NCBI GenBank assembly: GCA_035221665.1
Contig: CM069157.1
Coordinates: forward strand, 19,778,001 to 19,842,000
DNA: 64,000 nt
Direction of reading: 5' to 3'
DNA from: Okamejei kenojei
Lineage: Eukaryota
Below the pieces are notes generated by a model that did no database searches, was not told the DNA's origin, and saw nothing but the letters and a program-made list of their open reading frames with translations. Positions 1,621 through 61,888 of this stretch are shown here, piece after piece. Position numbers and translations under genes: made by a program. Position 1 is the stretch's first letter, and every line of letters begins with the position of its first letter.

Positions 1621-2044
1621 GTGGATGTTGAACCCCCAAATTTTGCAGATATTATACCTCATTTTGGGACACCAGATATTGACCTATTTGCGTCCAGGCT
1701 GAACCATCGAATACCAACGTATGTGTTGTGGGAACCAGACCCTGGGGCAATAGCAATGGATGCGTTTTTATCCATTGGGGGAAATGGTTTGCTACGCATT
1801 TCCCCCATTCTGCCTCACCAGTCGGGTATTGCAGAAAATTAAACTAGACTCTGCAACTGGCATATTGATCATTCCCGACTGGCCTATACAAACCATGGTA
1901 CCCGATGGTTGTAGAAATTTTAAAACAACCATGGATGGCGATTGGGAAACATCCCAAATTGATTACTCACTCCATTACGGGGGGGGGGGGGGGGTCAGTC
2001 ATCCTTGCCATGGTCATTTAAACTTGTTGGCCTGCAGGTTCTGA
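1621..2044 (+). pseudogene. DIRS DNA N6-adenine methyltransferase-like domain, frameshifted
   Basis: TPDIDLFASRLN (SAM-binding motif I-like), CYAFPPF (motif IV-like) and GILIIPDWP, directly after RNase H as in DIRS1 elements. Confidence 0.82.
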
Positions 2045-2069
2045 AAGACCACTCATCCGGTCAGGCATC

Positions 2070-2998
2070 TTGTTAAGAGCCATAGACCTTATCGCCGCAT
2101 CATGCCGAGAATCAACTCGGAAACAATACCTCACCCAAATCAGAAAGTGGGAGGCATTCTGTGCCCGGACCAACAAGTCTTCCAACTGGGCAACAATACC
2201 TGATGTGTTGGAGTTTCTAGCAGGCCTCCATTTCGATGCTGGCCTCAGCTACAGTGCCATCAACAGCGCCAGGAGTGCGCTGTCCTCATACCTGGATATA
2301 GGTGTCGGCTCCAACCACCTGGTGTCTAAACTAATGAGGGGAGTGTTCAACACCAACCCTCCACGACCCAGATATACAGTAACGTGGGATGTGGGGATCG
2401 TGCTGACCCTACTGAGGAGCTGGGCTCCAATAGATGAGCTACCACTGAAACAGCTCACCCTCAAGGTGGTGATGCTTATGGCACTGACTACAGCCCAACG
2501 AGCCCAGACGTTACAGAAACTGCGACTGGACAGCATGGTGGCCACCCCGGTCAAATAAATTTCTTTGTCAAAGAATTATTAAAACAGCACAGGCCAGGGG
2601 CGCATGGGCTGCAGTTGGAATTTCGGGCGTACCCTGTGGATGCCACTCTCTGCATAGTCACCCAACTCCACCACTACATCCGAGTTACTGGAGTTATCAG
2701 GATGAAGGAACAGGGGCTTCTCATCAGCCACAAACCTCCACATCATCGGGTGACTGTACAGACTATCGCCAGGTGGCTCAGGGTGGTGCTGGATGCAGCA
2801 GGAGTTGCTACTAACATTTTTAAGTCCCATTCCACCAGGGCTGCATCCATATCAGCAGCGAGAGCCATGGAGGTGCCCATGGACCACATTCTCGCCACCG
2901 CGGGCTGGGCCAGGGGGGAAAACCTTTCAACGGTTTACAACAAGCCTCTGGCCGCCCCTGCGACATTCGCAGAAGCTATCCTGGGTACCGCTCAGTAA
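2070..2998 (+). pseudogene. DIRS tyrosine recombinase (YR), frameshifted near 2555-2615
   Basis: LSYSAINSARSALS, PRYTVTWDV, TTAQRAQTL (catalytic R), SHSTRAAS (HxxR), AGW, YNKP (catalytic Y). Confidence 0.9.
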
Positions 2999-4067: not shown

Positions 4068-6149
4068 GGGGCTGTCTCTGTCTTACAGATGATGGGGGGC
4101 TGTCTCTGTCTTACAGGAACAGTTTCAGCAAACAGACTGGAGTCTGTTTGCCACCCAGGCCACCTTCAACTCCCATGTGGACATCAACTCATACACCTCA
4201 ACCGTTCTGGACTACATAAAATTCTGCACGGACAACGTCACTACACACAAAGTAATAAGGACCTTCCCTAACCAGAAGCCGTGGATGAACAGGGAGGTCA
4301 GACTCCTGCTGAAGGCTCGCGACGCCGCTTTTAAATCTGGCGATGCTGAGGGTTACAGCTCATCCAGGGCCAATCTGAAAAAGGGAATTAGGAATGCTAA
4401 ACTTAATCACAAACGGCGGATTGAGGAGCATTTCCGAAATAACTCTGACCCCAGGCGCATGTGGCAAGGAATCAAATCCATTGCCGATCACCATAAAGTT
4501 AACACTCCCCCCCCAGACAATGCCTCCCTTCCTGACGAGCTAAACTATTTCTACGCCCGCTTCGACCGGGACAACAAAACTCCTGCCATCAAAGGTGCTC
4601 CACCCCCGCATGAACAACCCCTCAGTCTCTCCACCTCTGCTGTTCAGGATGCACCGAGCAAGGTGAATGAGCACAAAGCTGCCGGCCCCGATGGCATCCC
4701 CGGGCGGGTGCTCAGGGCATGTGCTGGACAACTATCCCTGGTCCTCACTGACATCTTCAATCTGTCACTGGCCCAGGGTGTCGTCCCCACTTGCCTCAAG
4801 ACATCTACCATTGTGCAAGTGCCCAAACAATCAGCAACAGGGAGTCTCAATGATTTCCGGCCAGTGGCACTCACCCCTGTCATCGCCAAGTGCTTCGAGC
4901 GGCTGATCTTGGCTCACCTCAAAGCCAGCCTCCCCCCCACACTGGACCCCCATCAGTTTGCCTACCGGACCAATAGGTCAACAGAAGACGCCATATCTGC
5001 GGCCCTACACTCTGCCCTGACCCACCTGGACAGCAATAACACCTACATCAGGCTGCTGTTCATCGACTTCAGTTCCGCCTTTAACACTGTCATACCCGCT
5101 AGCTTGATCACCAAACTCAGCGGTCTTGGCATCTCCACTTCCCTCTGCAATTGGACACTGGATTTCCTCACTAACAGACCCCAGTCTGTTAGGATCAACA
5201 ACCTCACCTCCTCCACTATAACACTGAACACTGGCGTGCCACAAGGCTGTGTGCTCAGTCCTCTCCTCTACTCTCTCTTCACCCATGACTGCATCCCTAA
5301 GTTTAGCTCCAACGCCATCATAAAATTTGCCGACGACACCACGGTGGTAGGACTGATCAGCGATAACGACGAGTCAGCCTACAGGGAGGAGGTCCAGCAC
5401 CTGACAACCTGGTGTGCCAATAACAACCTCGTCCTTAACTCCCAAAAGACGAAGGAGATCATTGTCGACTTCAGGAAGAACAGAGGGGGCAGACACACCC
5501 CCATCCATATAAACGGGACTGAGGTGGAGCGGGTCTCCAACTACAAATTCCTCGGGGTACACATCTCGGAGGATCTGTCCTGGTCCCTCAACACCTCCAA
5601 GCTGGTCAAAAAGGCGCAGCAGCGCCTTTATTTCCTGAGGAGGCTCAAAAAAGCCCACCTGTCCCCTCAGATCCTGACCAACTTCTACCGCTGTACCATC
5701 GAAAGCATCCTGACCACCTGCTTTACGGTCTGGTACAGCAGTTGCACCGTAGCAGACAGGAAGGCACTACAACGGGTGGTGAAAACCGCCCAGCACATCA
5801 TCGGTGCCCCGCTCCCTGCTTTGGATGCCCTCCACCGAAAACGGTGTCTGAGACGGGCTGGGAAGATCATCAAGGACCCCTCCCACCCTAACCATGGACT
5901 GTTTGCCCTCCTACCATCGGGGAGGCGGTACAGGAGCCTCAGGTCCTGCACCAGCAGGATGAGGAGTAGCTTCTACAATAACACGATCGCACTGCTGAAC
6001 TCGGAGTCCCGCCGATAGATTCCCACACCTGTATTTATTTATCTGCATTTATCTAAACATTGCTATCACTACGTACTGACACTAAACTGCATTTCGTTGT
6101 ACCCATACTTGTATCTGTGCAATGACATTAAATTTGAATTGAATTGAAT
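4068..6149 (+). mobile_element. Young 5'-truncated Rex1/Babar-clade LINE
   Basis: Uninterrupted RT frame, short 3' UTR and (TTGAA)n tail. Near-identical to the copy at 60474-61888. Confidence 0.92.
4096..6018 (+). CDS. Non-LTR reverse transcriptase (Rex1-type), open frame, no APE endonuclease and no ATG (5' truncated)
   Basis: [64 protein letters not shown]. Confidence 0.92.
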   Translation, partial: GAVSVLQEQFQQTDWSLFATQATFNSHVDINSYTSTVLDYIKFCTDNVTTHKVIRTFPNQKPWMNREVRLLLKARDAAFKSGDAEGYSSSRANLKKGIRNAKLNHKRRIEEHFRNNSDPRRMWQGIKSIADHHKVNTPPPDNASLPDELNYFYARFDRDNKTPAIKGAPPPHEQPLSLSTSAVQDAPSKVNEHKAAGPDGIPGRVLRACAGQLSLVLTDIFNLSLAQGVVPTCLKTSTIVQVPKQSATGSLNDFRPVALTPVIAKCFERLILAHLKASLPPTLDPHQFAYRTNRSTEDAISAALHSALTHLDSNNTYIRLLFIDFSSAFNTVIPASLITKLSGLGISTSLCNWTLDFLTNRPQSVRINNLTSSTITLNTGVPQGCVLSPLLYSLFTHDCIPKFSSNAIIKFADDTTVVGLISDNDESAYREEVQHLTTWCANNNLVLNSQKTKEIIVDFRKNRGGRHTPIHINGTEVERVSNYKFLGVHISEDLSWSLNTSKLVKKAQQRLYFLRRLKKAHLSPQILTNFYRCTIESILTTCFTVWYSSCTVADRKALQRVVKTAQHIIGAPLPALDALHRKRCLRRAGKIIKDPSHPNHGLFALLPSGRRYRSLRSCTSRMRSSFYNNTIALLNSESRR

Positions 6150-9330: not shown

Positions 9331-10612
9331 ATCCGCTTTAAATCTGTTTTTCTCCCACATTCCAAAAATATGCTAATTTGATTATTAGTTAAATGGCTAC
9401 TGTAAGTTAGCCCAGTATAGGTGGGTGGTACGAGGAGGATGGAAGAGCAAATAAGAGCGAATGAATTACAAGGAAATAATGTTTGGGAATGCTCTGACAG
9501 TCAACATAGACTTGATGGGCAGAATGGCCTCCTTCCATGTTATGAGAATCACCCAAATCTAGTACACAATCAATTCTGTCCTATTATTAGATTGTGGACA
9601 TTGTTAGCATACACAACACTTATTGCCCATCTCTAATTGCCTCCTTGAGAAGGGGATGTGGAGGTACTTCCTTGTAAGTGCTGCTAGGTGCATAATGAAG
9701 GTTCTCCCAGAGTGGGTGGAGAGTATTAAAAGTCTGACCCGTCGAAGCGAAAGGCAAGGTAATGATTCTCTGAGTCAGAAGAGCATGCACGGTGGAGGGG
9801 AGTCTGCAGGTGGTGGTGTCCTCAGGCACCTGTAGTCCCACACTGTGCCCCAGTGCGGAGAGGGTCTTGGGAGGAACTGTCAAAGATCCCCATGACAAAG
9901 CAGTGAGCACCTTCCTAAAAACAGAACATATTCAGATTAATAGTGTGATGTGACAAATAACTCCACTCCTGAGATTGGAGCATAACTATCTTCTGATTTC
10001 ATTCTTCACAATTTATCAGGCTCGTCTCACTTATGGGGATATTCATCATATCACACTGCTGGCTACAACCGATCATCTATTTATAGAGGTTCCCAATGGT
10101 GTCTCTTGAGCTAACATCTGTGGAAAACTTGCTATCAATTATACATGAACATAACGTTTTCTTTAGAAGTGAACATGAATAGGGAACCATGTGATCAAGC
10201 AGCAGGAAAGTTGACCTCCTGGTAGAAGCTCAATCTTTTTCTTGCTAATTCCGTTGTTTTCAACATCTGAATCAGATGTTTGCAATAAAGGCTGCATCTG
10301 GATATTGTTGCAGTCAGCTAAAGGGTTCCCTAACCTCCAGCAAAAGTACTTAGACTTTTAAATAGAGAGGAAAAGGAAAGAGAGATAAGGATAGAAAAAA
10401 ACTGAAATAACATTAGCAAGGAATTGAATTATTAAGTGCCAAGGTTTTGTACACTATTTAGTTTGATTTTATTTTTAAAAAATAAAGTGCGCTGGAAAAT
10501 TGTTAGCTTGTTTCACATTGCAGTCAGTGATCTTCTGACCATATCCACACTATGTCACATCCCCAATCTACTCACTAACGCATCCTGGCACCTGACTCTT
10601 ACACAAGCATCT

Positions 10613-10755
10613 TCTCCTCCTTCTTCTTTCGTGTGGCGTGCACAGCCTAAAGTTGTTGGACAACTTGCTCTATTTGATCTTCTGTTTGTGCACGTCGAGT
10701 TGATTGCATTAGTCGAAACAGGGCGGACCACGTGAAGGTTGCAATCTTCCACCCC
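10613..10755 (-). mobile_element. Ribozyme-headed short retroelement, family A copy 1 (143 bp)
   Basis: 12-bp TSD ACACAAGCATCT (10601-10612 / 10756-10767), GAA-type 3' tail, homologue at 58974-59111, no pol III boxes. Confidence 0.9.
10702..10755 (-). ncRNA. Predicted minimal HDV-like self-cleaving ribozyme (54 nt)
   Basis: GGGGUGG-AA-GAUUGCA-ACC-UUCACGU-GGU-CCGCCCU-G-UUUCGA-CUAA-UGCAAUC: 7-bp P1 with G1.U wobble, 7-bp P2, 3-bp P3, 7-nt L3, tiny UUCG P4, J4/2 CUAA with candidate catalytic C at 10712. Confidence 0.82.
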
Positions 10756-11011
10756 ACACAAGCATCTCAAACCACCAAACATCAGTAGCCCAAACTAGAG
10801 CACTCTCAATCTCACTCCAGCACAACCAATCTACTGACCATCTCATTTCCAACGAGAGTCCACTGCACACCCACCCCCCCCCCCCCCCCCCCCCCAATAT
10901 CCACCCACCAAATTCCACCAGTAGCTCAAACTGGAACACTTACTCGAAAACATATGTCCCTATCCCAGCCATGCTACTGACCCTCTTATCCTGGCCGTGA
11001 AGCACCAACCC

Positions 11012-11078
11012 GGGGCTCATGTTGTCGACCTCCCCGTGGTGAGCCCTGTCAACTGACTTCAGTCAGGCGAACGACAAC
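11012..11078 (+). ncRNA. Predicted HDV-like self-cleaving ribozyme (67 nt)
   Basis: GGGGCUC-AU-GUUGUCG-ACC-UCCCCGU-GGU-GAGCCCU-G-UCAA-CUGAC-UUCA-GUCAG-G-CGAA-CGACAAC: P1 with G1.U, P2, P3, 5-bp P4, canonical J4/2 CGAA (C at 11068). Confidence 0.88.
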
Positions 11079-11210
11079 AAACGGAGACAGCAGCAGCGCC
11101 GTAGCTTGGCGCCAACCCGAAGCATGCGCCCTTTTTAGGGCGGGCACCTACGGATGTCGAACCGGATGGCATCACCCTGCTGCGGACTTCTGTTGCCTCA
11201 AACGCAAGAA
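11012..11210 (+). mobile_element. Ribozyme-headed short retroelement, family B (199 bp)
   Basis: 13-bp TSD GAAGCACCAACCC (10999-11011 / 11211-11223). The 3' end ACGCAAGAA is similar to family A. Confidence 0.88.
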
Positions 11211-11312
11211 GAAGCACCAACCCCATCTCCAACCACCCAACTCCCTCGCCAACCAGCTAATCTTTCCAACATCTGATCACAATCCATGAATTCAGATTCC
11301 ATCTCCCTAACT

Positions 11313-39931: not shown

Positions 39932-41065
39932 ATGGCCACCACAGCTTCGGCTCATTACATTCCGAGGAATAACTCGCTCCACTCTAACTCTTTGGTGCAT
40001 CCGGACTCTGACAGGATGCATCCAGGAACTACCTATAGAGAAGTTCAGAAAATGGTACAAAATGACTACTTGCACGGGCTGGCCAGCAATGGGCACCCCA
40101 TCACGCACAGCCACCAGTGGCTGTCTTCTGTCACTGACGGGGCGCCTTGGGTCACCACTTCTCACCTCGGACAGCCAGACCCAGTAAAGGCCACCGTGCA
40201 GACAGCCAGGGATGACCTTGGAAACAGCATCCATCACCGGACACATCATATGGTCCATCAACAGACTCATGGCAACCACCCTGGCGGCGGCTGGGGCACG
40301 GCGGCGGCTCATCACATCCCGGGGATGCCACCGTCCACTAACGGCCACCAGCCGCTCATCTACTCGCAGCCGGGGTTCACCAGCCTCAACAGCATGCTGA
40401 GCCCACAAAGCCAGTCTCTCCACCATGGGATGACGGATGCACTCCACGAGGACCCAGGTGGCCATGACAACCACCAGCAGCATCCTCCGCAACATCACCA
40501 GGACCACTCGGATGAAGATGCGCCCACGTCAGACGACTTGGAGCACTTTGCAAAGCAGTTCAAACAAAGGAGGATCAAGCTCGGCTTCACCCAGGCGGAC
40601 GTGGGCCTGGCCCTGGGCACACTGTACGGCAACGTCTTCTCCCAGACCACCATCTGCAGGTTTGAAGCCTTGCAACTCAGCTTCAAGAACATGTGCAAAC
40701 TGAAGCCCCTGTTGAACAAATGGCTGGAGGAGACTGACTCCACCTCGGGGAGTCCCACCAGCATAGACAAGATCGCTGCCCAAGGGAGGAAGAGGAAGAA
40801 GCGGACGTCCATTGAGATTGGAGTGAAGGGGGCATTGGAGAATCACTTCTTAAAGTGCCCCAAGCCATCGGCTCATGAGATCACCAGCTTGGCTGACAGT
40901 CTGCAGTTAGAGAAAGAAGTGGTCAGAGTTTGGTTTTGTAACAGAAGACAAAAAGAAAAGCGGATGACCCCAGCCGGGATCCCCGGGCACCCAGGGATGG
41001 AGGATGTATATTCACAAAGGGACACTCCGCCGCTTCATCACACACTGCAGTCCCCTGTTCAATGA
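39932..41065 (+). CDS. POU3F1: POU domain class 3 transcription factor 1 (Oct-6/SCIP/Tst-1), intronless, 377 aa
   Basis: ATG in GTCATGG context; complete POU-specific domain and homeodomain ([11 protein letters not shown]). Paralog-diagnostic features: N-terminus [50 protein letters not shown], and C-terminus [15 protein letters not shown]. Confidence 0.93.
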
Positions 41066-56179: not shown

Positions 56180-57222
56180 CTGACTCCCATAGTTATCTAG
56201 ACTAGGTGACACTTCTTCCCGCCCTGGTTACTGTAAAGACTCCATCCCCTACTCCCAATTCCTCCGTCTACACCAGGATGAGGTTTTCCATACCAGATCA
56301 TCGGAGATGTCCTCATTCTTTAGGAAACAGGAGTTCCCCTCTTCCATTATAGATGAGGCTCTCACTAGGGTGTCCTCGATATCTCGCAGCTCCGCTCTTA
56401 CTCTCCCTCGCCCCATTCGTAACAAGGACAGAGTCCCCCTTGTCCTCGCCTTCCGCCCCATCAGCCATCGCATACAGCATATAATCCTCAAACATTTTCA
56501 CCACCTCCAACGGGATCCCACAACTGGGATCTTCCCATCTCCACCACTTTCTGCTTTCCGCAGAGACCGTTCTCTCCGCAACTCCCTGGTCAACCTGTCC
56601 CTTCGCACCCAAATCATCCCCTCCCCAGGCACTTTCCCCTGCAACCGCAGGAGATGCAACACCTGTCACTTTAACCACCCCCTCGACTCTATCCAGGGAC
56701 CCCGACAGTCTTTCCAGGTGAGGCAGAGGTTCACTTACACCTCCTCCAACCCCATCTACTGTATCCGCTGTTCCAGGTGTCAACTCCTGTACATTGGCGA
56801 AACCAAGCGCAGGCTCAACGATCGTTTTGCTGAAAACCTCCGCTCAGTCCACCTTAGCTACCTGATCTCCCAGTTGCTCAGCACTTTAATTCCCCCTCCC
56901 ATTCCCAATCTGTCCTTTCTGTCCTGGGCCTCCTCCATTGTCAGGGTGAGCACCTCATATTTTGCTTGGGTAGCTTACACCCCAGCGGTATGAGCATTGA
57001 CTTATCTAATTCAAATAGCCCTTGCTTTCCCTCTCTCTCCATCCCCTTCCCTTTCCCAGTTTTCCCACCAGTCGTACTGTCTCCGACTATATTCTATCTC
57101 TCTATCGCCCACTCCCCTGACATCAGTCTAAAGCAGGGTCTCGACCCGAAACGTCACCCATTCCTTCTCTCCAGAGATGTTGCCTGTCCTGCTGAGTTAC
57201 TCCAGCATTTTGTGTCTACCTA
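56180..57222 (+). mobile_element. Penelope-like element 3' part: RT thumb, Cys linker, GIY-YIG endonuclease, pLTR
   Basis: CNRRRCNTC, IYCIRCSRCQLLYIGETKRRLNDRFAE, LGSLHPSGMSI, then the pLTR with GGGTCTCGACCCGAAACGTCACC. Confidence 0.9.
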
Positions 57223-58682: not shown

Positions 58683-58973
58683 TTTTTTTCTCCCATCATT
58701 ACGGTTTGAATCTGCATCATTCAAGATTCTTAGTTCTATTTATTTATCACTATGCTCTTCTATTAGGGAGTTTGTCATTTAAAGATCCACGACCGTTTAA
58801 TTGTTTAATAATCACGATTTATGTTATTTAGTCTCAGACATGCAGAAAGTTATTCCCGGTGAGATAAATCCTTGCAGGAGAAAAGCGAGATATTTTTAGG
58901 TCATATTTTAAAGCTGTCAAAATAAAGCAAATCTGAAAAGTCTACCAGAGAAGGTATATTCTTGCCTTGTTTC

Positions 58974-59111
58974 TTCTTCTTCTTGCTTGTGGCGTGCACA
59001 GCCTAAAGTTGTTGGACCACTTGCTCTATTTGATCTTCCGTTTGTGCACGTCGAGTTGATTGCATTAGACGAAACAGGGCGGACCACGTGAAGGTTGCAA
59101 CCTTCCACTCC
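58974..59111 (-). mobile_element. Ribozyme-headed short retroelement, family A copy 2
   Basis: 12-13-bp TSD (C)TTGCCTTGTTTC (58962-58973 / 59112-59123), (GAA)n tail, homologous to 10613-10755. Confidence 0.9.
59058..59111 (-). ncRNA. Predicted minimal HDV-like ribozyme, copy 2 (3 substitutions versus copy 1)
   Basis: GGAGUGG-AA-GGUUGCA-ACC-UUCACGU-GGU-CCGCCCU-GUUUCGU-CUAA-UGCAAUC. The P2 change A>G keeps pairing as G.U; P1 has one A.C mismatch. Confidence 0.7.
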
Positions 59112-60473
59112 TTGCCTTGTTTCAAGGCTGCATGTCCAAATGCTTTGCGTTATTTTTTTAACCAGCTGAATGAGTTAATTTTGGTGTTTGAATGAGATAT
59201 CTCTCCTATGTCCATATCTATGTCATAAATCAAAGGATTAGGTGCTGCCTCTCTCCTTATCCACATTAATGCTATGACATAAAATGGAACTGCGCAAATA
59301 TCCTGATCCAAAATCCAAACATCACACCCACTGCCCTCAACATGCTCAGAGAAGTTCATGTTGCATCACCCATGTCAGAGGTTGGTGTGTAAACCTGCTC
59401 CATTAAGGGAAAATTAGGGCCAAGCCAGAGTGTGATTGTGACCATGCAAAACAAACTGTGGAAAACATTTGGTAAACCACTCACCACTGTACTCTGTGCT
59501 CCTTCTGCAGAAGAAGTGCAAAAACTACACAAACTCTCTCCTGAATCCCTCTTAGGCTTACAGAACTTGGCATTGGTGTTTAGCTTCTGAGCATATTGCC
59601 ATATGCGCTCTCTTCCTTCTTACATAATAAAACTGAGAGCTGTAGAACTTTGAAGAGTTGCCAATGTTACAACTGCTCTTACAGAAATTATCGTTTCCAG
59701 CTTTTAAATATAATCCACTCTCACTTTACTTTGTTACATATTTAATTCCATAATGTTTTTTTTCATATTTTTGTTTGCATGTTTATTCCTTCTTTTTGTC
59801 TAATACCCGAGAGCATCAATGCTGGAAACCAAGACAGATGAGATTAAGTCAGCATTACCTTTCTCTGGCATCTCACTGACTAACTACTTAAATTGAAACT
59901 ACTTAAACATCATATAATGTTTTGTTTTTTGAAGTCTAATTGAAAAGGAAATTAATTTGTCGGCCAGGTTTTCTGTTCCTCATTGTTATCCCATGATTCA
60001 TTCTTGGGTGTAAATAATGAGAGAATGTTGCCAATCTGAAGAGTTAAGATTGTGATCCACACCTCAGGAGACAATTTGGACTGGATCACCGTGGATCTAG
60101 CAGGTACCTGAAAGGCCAGTACCCACCTGTCAACAGAGATCTACTGTGCTGACCCTGTCTATACAAGAGTCCTCCTGCCAGGTGCATCAGGCTGGAGTCG
60201 GTGTCCAAGCCTCAGAGAGCAGATGCTGAGACTTTCTCTTATAATGTTCTGATGGCCTTTTCACAGCTGCAACCAAAACCCTTTTGGGAGAGGCATTTAA
60301 ATATTTTGAATGGTAATTCAATATTTTATTAAGGACAGATTGAACTATAAAAATAATGCATATAAATCCATTTAATTTTAAACACATTTAAGTAGTATAA
60401 TGAATACCATCAAAATAAGGTAAAATGGAGAAAAACAAGCAAACTACATTTTGTGCAGGAAGGAACTACAGAT

Positions 60474-61888
60474 TCAATTCAATTCAACTTTAATGTCATT
60501 GCACAGATACAAGTATGGGTACAACGAAATGCAGTTTAGTGACAGTACAAAGTGATAGCAATATATAGATAAATACAGATAAATAAATACAGATGTGGAA
60601 ATCTATCGGTGGGACTCTGAATTTAGCAGTGCGATGGTGTTATTATAGAAGCTACTCCTCATCCTGCTGGTGCGGGACCTGAGGCTCCTGTACCGCCTCC
60701 CCGATGGTAGGAGGGCAAACAGTCCATGGTTAGGGTGGGAGGGGTCCTTGATGATCTTCCCAGCCCGTCTCAGACGCCGTTTTCGGTGGAGGGCATCCAT
60801 GGCAGGGAGCGGGACACCGATGATGTGCTGGGCGGTTTTTACCACCCGTTGTAGTGCCTTCCTGTCTGCTACGGTGCAACTGCTGTACCATACCGTAAAG
60901 CAGGTGGTCAGGATGCTTTCAATGGTGCATCGGTAGAAGTGGGTCAGGATCTGGGGGGACAGGTGGGCTTTTTTGAGCCTCCTCAGGAAGTAAAGGCGCT
61001 GCTGCGCCTTTTTGATCAGCTTGGAGGTGTTGAGGGACCAGGACAGATCCTCCGAGATGTGTACCCCGAGGAATTTGTAGTTGGAGACCCGCTCCACCTC
61101 AGCCCCGTTTATATGGATGGGGGTGTGTCTGCCCCCTCTGTTCTTTCTGAAGTCGACAATGATTTCCTTCGTCTTCTGGGAGTTGAGGACGAGGTTATTG
61201 TTGGCACACCAGGTTGTCAGGTGCTGGACCTCCTCCCTGTAGGCTGACTCGTCGTTGTCACTGATCAGTCCTACCACCGTGGTGTCGTCGGCAACTTTTA
61301 TGATGGCGTTGGAGCCATGCTTGGGGATGCAGTCATGGGTGAAGAGGGAGTAGAGGAGAGGGCTGAGCACACAGCCCTGTGGCACGCCGGTGTTCAGTGT
61401 TATAGTGGAGGAGGTGAGGTTGTTGATCCTAACAGACTGAGGTCTGTTAATGAGGAAATCCAGTGTCCAATTGCAGAGGGAAGTGGAGATGCCAAGACCG
61501 CTGAGTTTGGTGATTAAGCTAGCGGGTATGACAGTGTTGAAGGCGGAGCTGAAGTCAATGAACAGCAGCCTGATGTAGGTGTTATTGCTGTCCAGGTGGG
61601 TCAGGGCAGAGTGTAGGGCCGCCGATATGGCGTCCTCTGTAGGACCTATTGGTCCGGTAGGCAAACTGATGGGGGTCCAGTGTGGGGGGGAGGCTGGCTT
61701 TGAGGTGAGCCAAGATCAGCCGCTCGAAGCACTTGGCGATGACAGGGGTGAGTGCCACTGGCCGGAAATCGTTGAGACTCCCTGTCGCTGATTGTTTGGG
61801 CACTGGCACAATGGTAGATGTCTTGAGGCAAGTGGGGACGACACCCTGGGCCGGTGACAGATTGAAAATGTCAGTGAGGACGAGGGAT
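60474..61888 (-). mobile_element. Young 5'-truncated Rex1 LINE, copy 2 (one frameshift near 61640, KVADD), inserted into a Penelope pLTR
   Basis: Near-identical to 4733-6149. The flanks AGGAAGGAACTACAGAT | TACACCGAAGATAG rejoin the pLTR (60452-60473 and 61889-62110). Confidence 0.92.

Follow-up and report, generated by a model that had tools for sequence, protein, structure and literature searches.

Two short retroposons with a predicted HDV-like 5′ fold in Okamejei kenojei, probable derivatives of two Vingi-like LINE families

Two bipartite non-autonomous retroposons, A (143 nt) and B (199 nt), stand back-to-back in the stretch of Okamejei kenojei DNA analysed here (hereafter the window, 64 kb in all), which raises the questions of where each came from, what moved it and whether the two belong together. 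The evidence indicates, with a probability of about 0.85, that A and B are independent insertions and non-coding internal-deletion derivatives of two Vingi-like LINE families, with a predicted HDV-like fold at the 5′ end.

The positions and letters that a first-pass annotation had assigned to B, to the A copy beside it (A1) and to a second A copy (A2) were confirmed, as was the divergent orientation of A and B with their heads 256 bp apart. The parts are as follows, V1, V2 and V6 being LINE families of the same genome.

10601..10612, no strand: 3′ (tail-side) copy of the 12 bp TSD of A1, an exact repeat of 10756-10767
10613-10755, (-): element A1, flanked by an exact 12 bp TSD
10613..10625, (-): (GAA)n-like tail of A1 with GGA variants, read from the sequence; the tail length differs between copies
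10626..10656, (-): 3′ part of A1, the last codons, stop and 3′ UTR of V6 (match to the V6 3′ end)
10657..10682, (-): middle linker of A1, about 26 nt, weak hairpin with the 3′ part
10683..10755, (-): 5′ part of A1, the V6 5′ end (A nt 1-73 against V6 heads)
10702-10755, (-): predicted HDV-like ribozyme of A1, 54 nt, with a very short UUCG-capped P4 (descriptor match; pair count)
10756..10767, no strand: 5′ (head-side) TSD copy of A1, an exact repeat of 10601-10612
10768..10998, no strand: host DNA separating A1 and B, 231 bp of unrelated sequence
10999..11011, no strand: 5′ copy of the 13 bp TSD of B, an exact repeat of 11211-11223
11012-11210, (+): element B, flanked by an exact 13 bp TSD
11012..11078, (+): predicted HDV-like ribozyme of B, 67 nt, G1 = 11012 (descriptor match; head common to the V1 and V2 LINEs)
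11079..11183, (+): shortened V1 5′ UTR and first ORF codons (alignment to V1 5′ ends)
11184..11210, (+): 3′ part of B, the V1 3′ UTR and start of the (GAA)n tail (match to the V1 3′ end)
11211..11223, no strand: 3′ TSD copy of B, 13 bp, an exact repeat of 10999-11011
58961-58973 and 59111-59123, no strand: TSDs of A2, 13 bp, exact repeat
58974-59110, (-): A2, 94% identical to A1; the unit with its TSDs spans 58961..59123

The linker at 10657..10682 has no match at these positions in the V6 alignment, and its hairpin with the 3′ part is not significant (z -1.5). The spacer at 10768-10998 gave no convincing match among the examined loci of the genome, the best reaching an E value of 0.002 over 33 nt.

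Elsewhere in the window, two 95% identical pieces of another LINE, with an RT and an ALKBH8_N-type C-terminus, lie at 4093-6018 (+) and 60603-61715 (-) and are presumably Rex1/Babar-like; their RTs were rejected as partners of A and B, being of another LINE type with no termini in common with the two elements. A single-exon POU plus homeodomain gene, which we take to be of class III type, occupies 39932-41065 (+). The broken tyrosine-recombinase-like ORF with Phage_int_SAM matches at 2022-2998 (+) is likely the remnant of a DIRS-type retrotransposon, and a 266-aa frame without a Pfam match at 56193-56993 (+) looks to us like a Penelope-type GIY-YIG region.

An HDV descriptor run on both strands of the 64 kb window matched A1 and B only, with 0 matches in 300 kb of shuffled sequence; A2, in which one P1 pair is broken, fails it. 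At the gathering threshold no Rfam family matched anywhere in the window, and pseudoknot-free folding of the heads was no better than that of shuffles (z -0.04 for A and -0.88 for B). The layout met in A and B is a nested double pseudoknot of P1 (7 bp), P2, P3, L3, P1.1 and P4. The P4 of A amounts to some 2 bp with a UUCG loop, its P1.1 consists of one possible C-G pair, and the candidate catalytic C of B sits in CGAA, 5′ of the P2 3′ strand. The first-pass annotation had held that the heads covary with every pair kept, and the count agrees: 17 of 17 pairs in P1, P2 and P3 are preserved between A1 and B, with 6 two-sided changes, 1 one-sided change and 0 broken pairs. The equal segment lengths that it also claimed extend up to the P1 3′ strand, but not to the P4 region (11 nt in A vs 24 nt in B).

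Family V4 of the same genome bears a distinct HDV-like head, whose P4 is long, in 15 of 20 loci. Relatives from other organisms, on metagenome contigs (L423, L414, L429, L396, L458, L394 and L401), were also seen to bear HDV-like heads, which have other stems and precede the ORF by about 150-200 nt. In a comparison of A, B, V4 and L423, 68 of 68 pairs are kept and 12 of 17 columns contain more than one pair type, with cross-pairing between lineages giving only 7-12 of 17; shuffles averaged 47 pairs and 0 of 100,000 reached 68, a result that is not a probability because the four lineages are related. The pairs were counted by segment in a script, a MAFFT alignment having misplaced the P2 3′ strand. 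L423, the sole metagenome head in the count, was picked by eye and core motif, and the degraded heads L401, L414, L455 and L458 were left out along with L394 (G-G at pair 1 as segmented). The strict HDV descriptor gave 0 matches in 21 segments of metagenome heads and 1 in the reverse control. V6 has U-A in P1 where A has U-G. A G1-U wobble is a hallmark of HDV-like ribozymes. A, B, V4 and L423 all have G1-U and, four bases ahead of the P2 3′ strand, a C; their J4/2 reads CUAA, CGAA, CCAA and CUUA, respectively. Ribozyme activity of the A/B fold is suggested by its likeness to L1TcRz, as presented in PMC3185411 and PMC4035085, and by the role of the J4/2 cytosine in HDV-like ribozymes, described in PMC10879173.

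Autonomous-type partners carrying each head and tail, which the first-pass annotation had envisaged, were found in the genome: V1 for B and V6 for A, all copies seen being interrupted. Both are LINEs of 3.0-3.2 kb with one ORF encoding APE plus RT and a C-terminal Cys/His motif, and no RNase H. A search for the B tail without the B head gave 21 loci, none of them (0/21) a long LINE piece, and among them a longer form with ORF-like sequence (L087); a motif search based on L087 gave 25 loci, several of which are 3.1 kb elements bearing both the B head and the B tail and define V1. The converse search, B head without B tail, yielded 14 matches and no long element. B corresponds to V1 nt 1-172 joined to its last ~25 nt, B nt 2-172 aligning to V1 5′ ends and B nt 175-199 matching V1 3′ ends at 84-92%, and V1 forms with intermediate deletions and other junctions exist (L087, L102 and L112). 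More V1 deletion derivatives with varied junctions were observed (L087, L098, L102, L105, L110, L112 and L119), some joints recurring in several copies. One V1 copy recurs many times with the same flank on several contigs (L179, L180; C25, C27, C29, C32) and probably sits inside a larger duplicated segment. Pfam recognized Exo_endo_phos_2 and RVT_1, and no RNase H, in five V1/V2 pieces, and V1/V2 pieces of one ORF cover residues 4-1013 of the public relative P0001 within 3.2 kb, all copies seen being interrupted.

An RT search of the genome, in which the best 150 of 79,752 candidates were scored, revealed the further families V2, V3 and V4, all with (GAA)n ends. V2 has a B-like head, and the 3′ end of B differs from that of V2 beyond the shared last 10 nt. 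The V2 copies L139, L137, L144, L154 and L124 are young, full-length (3.2 kb) and Vingi-like. No intact ORF was seen in any family: the longest V2 open frame has 778 aa, and full-length V2 copies have frames of 244-586 aa. V2 ORFs are broken by few indels, many of which adjoin the same base and may be assembly errors. The genome holds at least three more Vingi-like families, V4 (L462-L479), V3 (L161-L170) and V5 (L115/L128); no heads of V3 and V5 were seen in the copies examined.

None of V1-V4 has an A-like end, and a search for the A tail without the A head returned 3,976 matches, mostly of an older A subfamily, with no LINE-like end among the 100 matches listed. The parent of A was found by a protein search with the last 94 residues of the relative P0054, which led to the new family V6 in 30 of 30 loci examined. 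All or part of the A 3′ end follows the ORF stop in 26 of these 30 loci. In 30 loci examined at the V6 5′ end, 21 have the A head; a near-full-length copy measures about 3,040 nt. A is composed of V6 nt 1-73, the ~26-nt linker and the last ~31-35 nt, with A nt 1-73 matching the heads of long V6 copies at 85-95% (e.g. L266, L282 and L288) and A nt 100-130 matching V6 3′ ends at 81-94%. The label SINE, used in the first-pass annotation, does not apply in the strict sense, the heads of A and B being LINE 5′ ends aligned from their first bases. A SINE with a small-RNA head (tRNA, 5S, 7SL or snRNA) was rejected on the same alignments and on the absence of an Rfam match in the window at the gathering threshold. 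A and B have the make-up of bipartite non-autonomous LINEs (SIDEs), with LINE 5′ and 3′ parts joined, the ORF lost, TSDs on both sides and multiple copies.

The public relatives P0001-P0061 are APE+RT proteins of 858-1,052 aa with no RNase H family listed. They form one clade with V1-V4 in the RT tree (support 1.00), and a second, smaller tree that includes V6 supports the clade at 0.78. Two RT motifs of this clade are present in 57 and 42 of 61 clade proteins and in 0 of 59 others. Searched in their exact forms in the RTclass1 set (file 2 of the PMC3708506 RT supplement), they match metazoan Ingi-labelled entries, including one of hedgehog, and no RTE entry; one looser form also matches L2 entries. 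The entries Ingi-1_Pp and Ingi-1_BF appear, from the names in PMC3391268, to be those later called Vingi-1_Pp and Vingi-1_BF. Vingi elements are characterized in PMC13708176 as compact, single-ORF and without RNase H, and a Vingi protein of 993 aa is given in PMC3708506. V1, V2 and V6 likely belong to Vingi, as judged by RT motifs and architecture; the trees contain no named Vingi reference. The RTE clade was rejected, the RT motifs lying on Ingi-labelled entries and on none of RTE, and the C-terminal Cys/His motif being present.

Copies were counted with junction k-mers over the 2.76 Gb genome, backward controls giving 0. The junction 24-mer of A, with one mismatch allowed, gives a minimum of 14,704 copies, the best 40 matches being 96-100% identical, and the older A subfamily is abundant as well. 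B has about 400 copies (397 occurrences of its junction 25-mer); in a set of 82 B loci, drawn in order along the genome, 63 full-length copies have at most 3 differences, 10 full-length copies have more and 9 copies are partial. Exact TSDs of at least 8 nt, mostly 11-12 nt, were found round 103 of the 112 copies of B and 42 of the 56 of A. Every B TSD (103/103) starts with a purine, and A and B have in common an upstream bias to T at -2 and A at -3, the T two bases upstream of the TSD occurring in 63% (B) and 74% (A). According to the first-pass annotation, TSDs begin with AGA or GAA and tail-target microhomology primes the insertion. In the window the TSDs do begin with AGA, GAA and GAA in element orientation, but genome-wide the resemblance comes down to 1-2 tail-like purines. 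Tail-phase overlap reaches 1 nt or more in 101 of 103 copies of B, against a null of 46%, and in 34 of 42 copies of A, against 44%; in B it averages 1.87 vs 0.73 in the null, with 3 nt or more in 19 of 103. The overlap, of only 1-2 nt, is above chance and equally compatible with priming and with a nuclease preference.

Family V6 frequently shows 5′ inversions. Of 30 loci picked by the V6 5′ UTR, 16 have an inverted 3′ part back-to-back with the head, and 2 of another 6 share this arrangement; among 38 loci chosen for their 3′ end there are 6 inverted, 2 collinear with the head and 30 simply truncated copies. The 5′-picked sample favours short inverted pieces and the 3′-picked one does not; in the latter, each of the 6 inverted pieces contains the head or the first 76-419 nt of it. 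Across 24 inverted loci in total (including L264, L269, L270, L278, L482, L211, L251 and L486), the start of the inverted piece falls at nt 1-13 in 19 loci and at nt 63-87 in the other 5, and its far end is without exception 72-477 nt from the 5′ end; in 22 loci more than 600 nt of the middle is missing. Where the tail is in view, 13 of 22 loci have one TSD enclosing both pieces (8 exact of 10-13 nt, 5 of 10-12 nt with one mismatch), and 9 have none that convinces. Inversions are rarer in V4 (1 clear of 20) and were seen once each in V1 and V2. An origin of the head-only inverted pieces as copies of A RNA was rejected on their V6-type letters in 4 of 5 cases, one being ambiguous.

V6 5′ inversions have the form of twin priming, apparently aimed at the ribozyme end, and the 5′ end of V6 RNA seems to be kept close to the target site; an alternative to such 5′ tethering is that degradation removed the middle of the RNA. 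In PMC4245944, inversions in human cells are confined to L1 bar one Nimb-2 insert, and PMC2912911 puts the share of 5′ inversions in primate L1 at 31%. No literature on twin priming in Vingi was found, and Vingi inversions or the ribozyme may have been described earlier. A wider proposal, for which we see close to but short of an even chance, is that an HDV-like ribozyme occurs throughout Vingi-like LINEs and that their protein tethers the ribozyme end at the target, yielding inversions and bipartite mini-elements. In such a tether model, the second DNA end would prime just behind the ribozyme, or the first cDNA would jump there, and the same geometry would produce both frequent 5′ inversions outside L1 and a stream of mini-elements like A and B.

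The first-pass annotation had placed A and B in one ribozyme-LINE/SINE system and considered a local insertion hotspot. The fold common to both, the likeness of their 3′ ends and their equal TSD length and upstream bias would suit a single system with one parent clustered at a hotspot, as would a further A copy 103 bp behind a B copy (L058). The parents, however, are separate: A derives from V6 and B from V1, whose RTs are 36-46% identical and lie on different branches of the RT tree, and the one-system claim is not supported, although one active relative may have moved both. The flanks of 144 distinct B loci (417 kb, the window's own locus excluded) contain 2 A copies against 2.2 expected, with 1 within 300 bp of B against 0.46 expected, and the lower-bound A count predicts about 1.1 A-B pairs at 256 bp or less in the whole genome. 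These counts stand at expectation, with low power for an enrichment under about 3-4 fold, and at this resolution they refute the hotspot; the back-to-back spacing fits chance, and the combination of one system, one parent and a hotspot is very improbable. The same pair of elements as the product of one twin-primed or double insertion event is scarcely credible. V6 does make head-to-head structures, but its inverted products have one TSD round both pieces and little or no spacer, whereas A1 and B each have their own exact TSD and are separated by 231 bp of host DNA.

Median pairwise substitutions amount to 0.8% in V2 (19 copies), 3.6% in V4 (8), 6.6% in V3 (9), 9.1% in V6 (20) and 11.2% in V1 (18). 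Since decay marks every V1 and V6 copy seen, the young sister family V2 probably mobilized the recent B copies in trans; it is the best candidate because its age is close to that of B and the two have the last 10 nt in common. That recent A and B copies were instead moved by their own intact parents (V6 and V1), too rare to be scored or missing from the assembly, has clearly less than an even chance. Each short element bears the 3′ end of its parent, with that of B departing from V2 outside the last 10 nt, and the genome searches are lower bounds that score the best 40-150 candidates, so that they could overlook an intact but rare V1 or V6 copy; yet there is no young copy among the 18 V1 and 20 V6 compared (closest pairs 8.0% and 3.8%), and the search for the B tail without its head led to no long LINE piece. 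The 5′ fold, for its part, could be a protein-binding or protective structure or an internal promoter with no active ribozyme, much as Pr77 serves L1Tc in two roles. R2 templates are reported to benefit from a stable fold (PMC11331408), and Pr77 is described in PMC4035085 as both promoter and ribozyme, alongside fold-compatible sequences with weak or no activity. This reading is unlikely, given that G1-U, L3 and the J4/2 cytosine persist among lineages that differ from one another at 6-11 stem pairs and that insertions mostly start at G1. Among copies with a head, that position is a G in 106 of 112 (B) and 53 of 56 (A), and the B TSD ends exactly at G1 in 70 of 103 copies and takes in one G in 23 more.

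For A and B as independent LINE derivatives, the following pathway can be proposed. A host transcript would run through an A or B copy, and the predicted 5′ fold would free the element RNA by cleaving before G1, leaving a defined, fold-protected 5′ end. A LINE protein acting in trans would bind the short 3′ end (ACGCAAG or ACGAAAG followed by GAA repeats), nick DNA at a loose A-T-Y/purine site and prime on 1-2 nt of tail overlap, and copying of the RNA would leave TSDs of 11-12 bp. The protein's hold on the RNA 5′ end near the target would likely explain both the collinear deletion derivatives and the V6 5′ inversions.

A literature search found nothing relevant on these elements. A and B are of a familiar type, that of NARTc and RIME, short LINE derivatives headed by a ribozyme (PMC5786205). 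As in the pairs L1Tc/NARTc and ingi/RIME, a 5′ HDV-like ribozyme, here predicted, is common to the LINE and its short internally deleted derivative (PMC3185411, PMC4035085). The L1Tc ribozyme (Pr77, L1TcRz) has a one-pair P1.1 and cleaves at +1 (PMC3185411, PMC4035085), and the predicted A/B fold is similar; L1Tc, however, encodes an RNase H and the V1/V2 parents none, and the present elements have (GAA)n tails and an animal host. R2 and the R2-derived SIDEs likewise combine a 5′ HDV-like ribozyme with non-autonomous internal-deletion forms (PMC3414825, PMC6765202), but R2 uses a restriction-like nuclease and a single rDNA target, in contrast to the APE and wide insertion of the A/B families. 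The RTE LINEs and related short retroposons resemble the present elements in their single ORF, microsatellite tail and 10-12 bp TSD whose first base follows the tail (PMC6007223), and some RTE-clade LINEs carry ribozymes, as predicted for the families here. Unlike RTE, these families have diagnostic RT motifs that match metazoan Ingi/Vingi entries and a C-terminal Cys/His motif.

L1 twin priming places an inverted 5′ piece and a sense 3′ piece within one 10-13 bp TSD with short microhomologies (PMC2912911, PMC4245944), as in V6, but V6 differs from L1 in that its inverted piece never extends beyond 477 nt from the 5′ end and that over 600 nt of the middle is lost in 22 of 24 loci. The frequent V6 inversions contrast with the nearly L1-specific view in the literature (PMC4245944). 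The 5′-anchored inversions and a ribozyme across Vingi-like families may be new. The predicted fold on V1, V2, V4, V6 and the metagenome relatives would add Vingi to the ribozyme-bearing clades, and the 54-nt predicted ribozyme of A is close to minimal size and easy to assay. Vingi-1 is under development for RNA-only gene insertion with its native 5′ UTR (PMC13708176), and work on it could test two predictions, self-cleavage of the 5′ UTR and the formation of by-products with an inversion or deletion. Like the parents here, Vingi LINEs are compact, with a single ORF of ~1,000 aa, APE+RT and no RNase H (PMC13708176, PMC3708506), and bipartite non-autonomous derivatives like A and B are reported for them (the Vingi-1_EE derivatives and Vingi-1_Acar; PMC5786205), so that the two elements bear on the question, raised in the same paper, of why few clades make bipartite derivatives.
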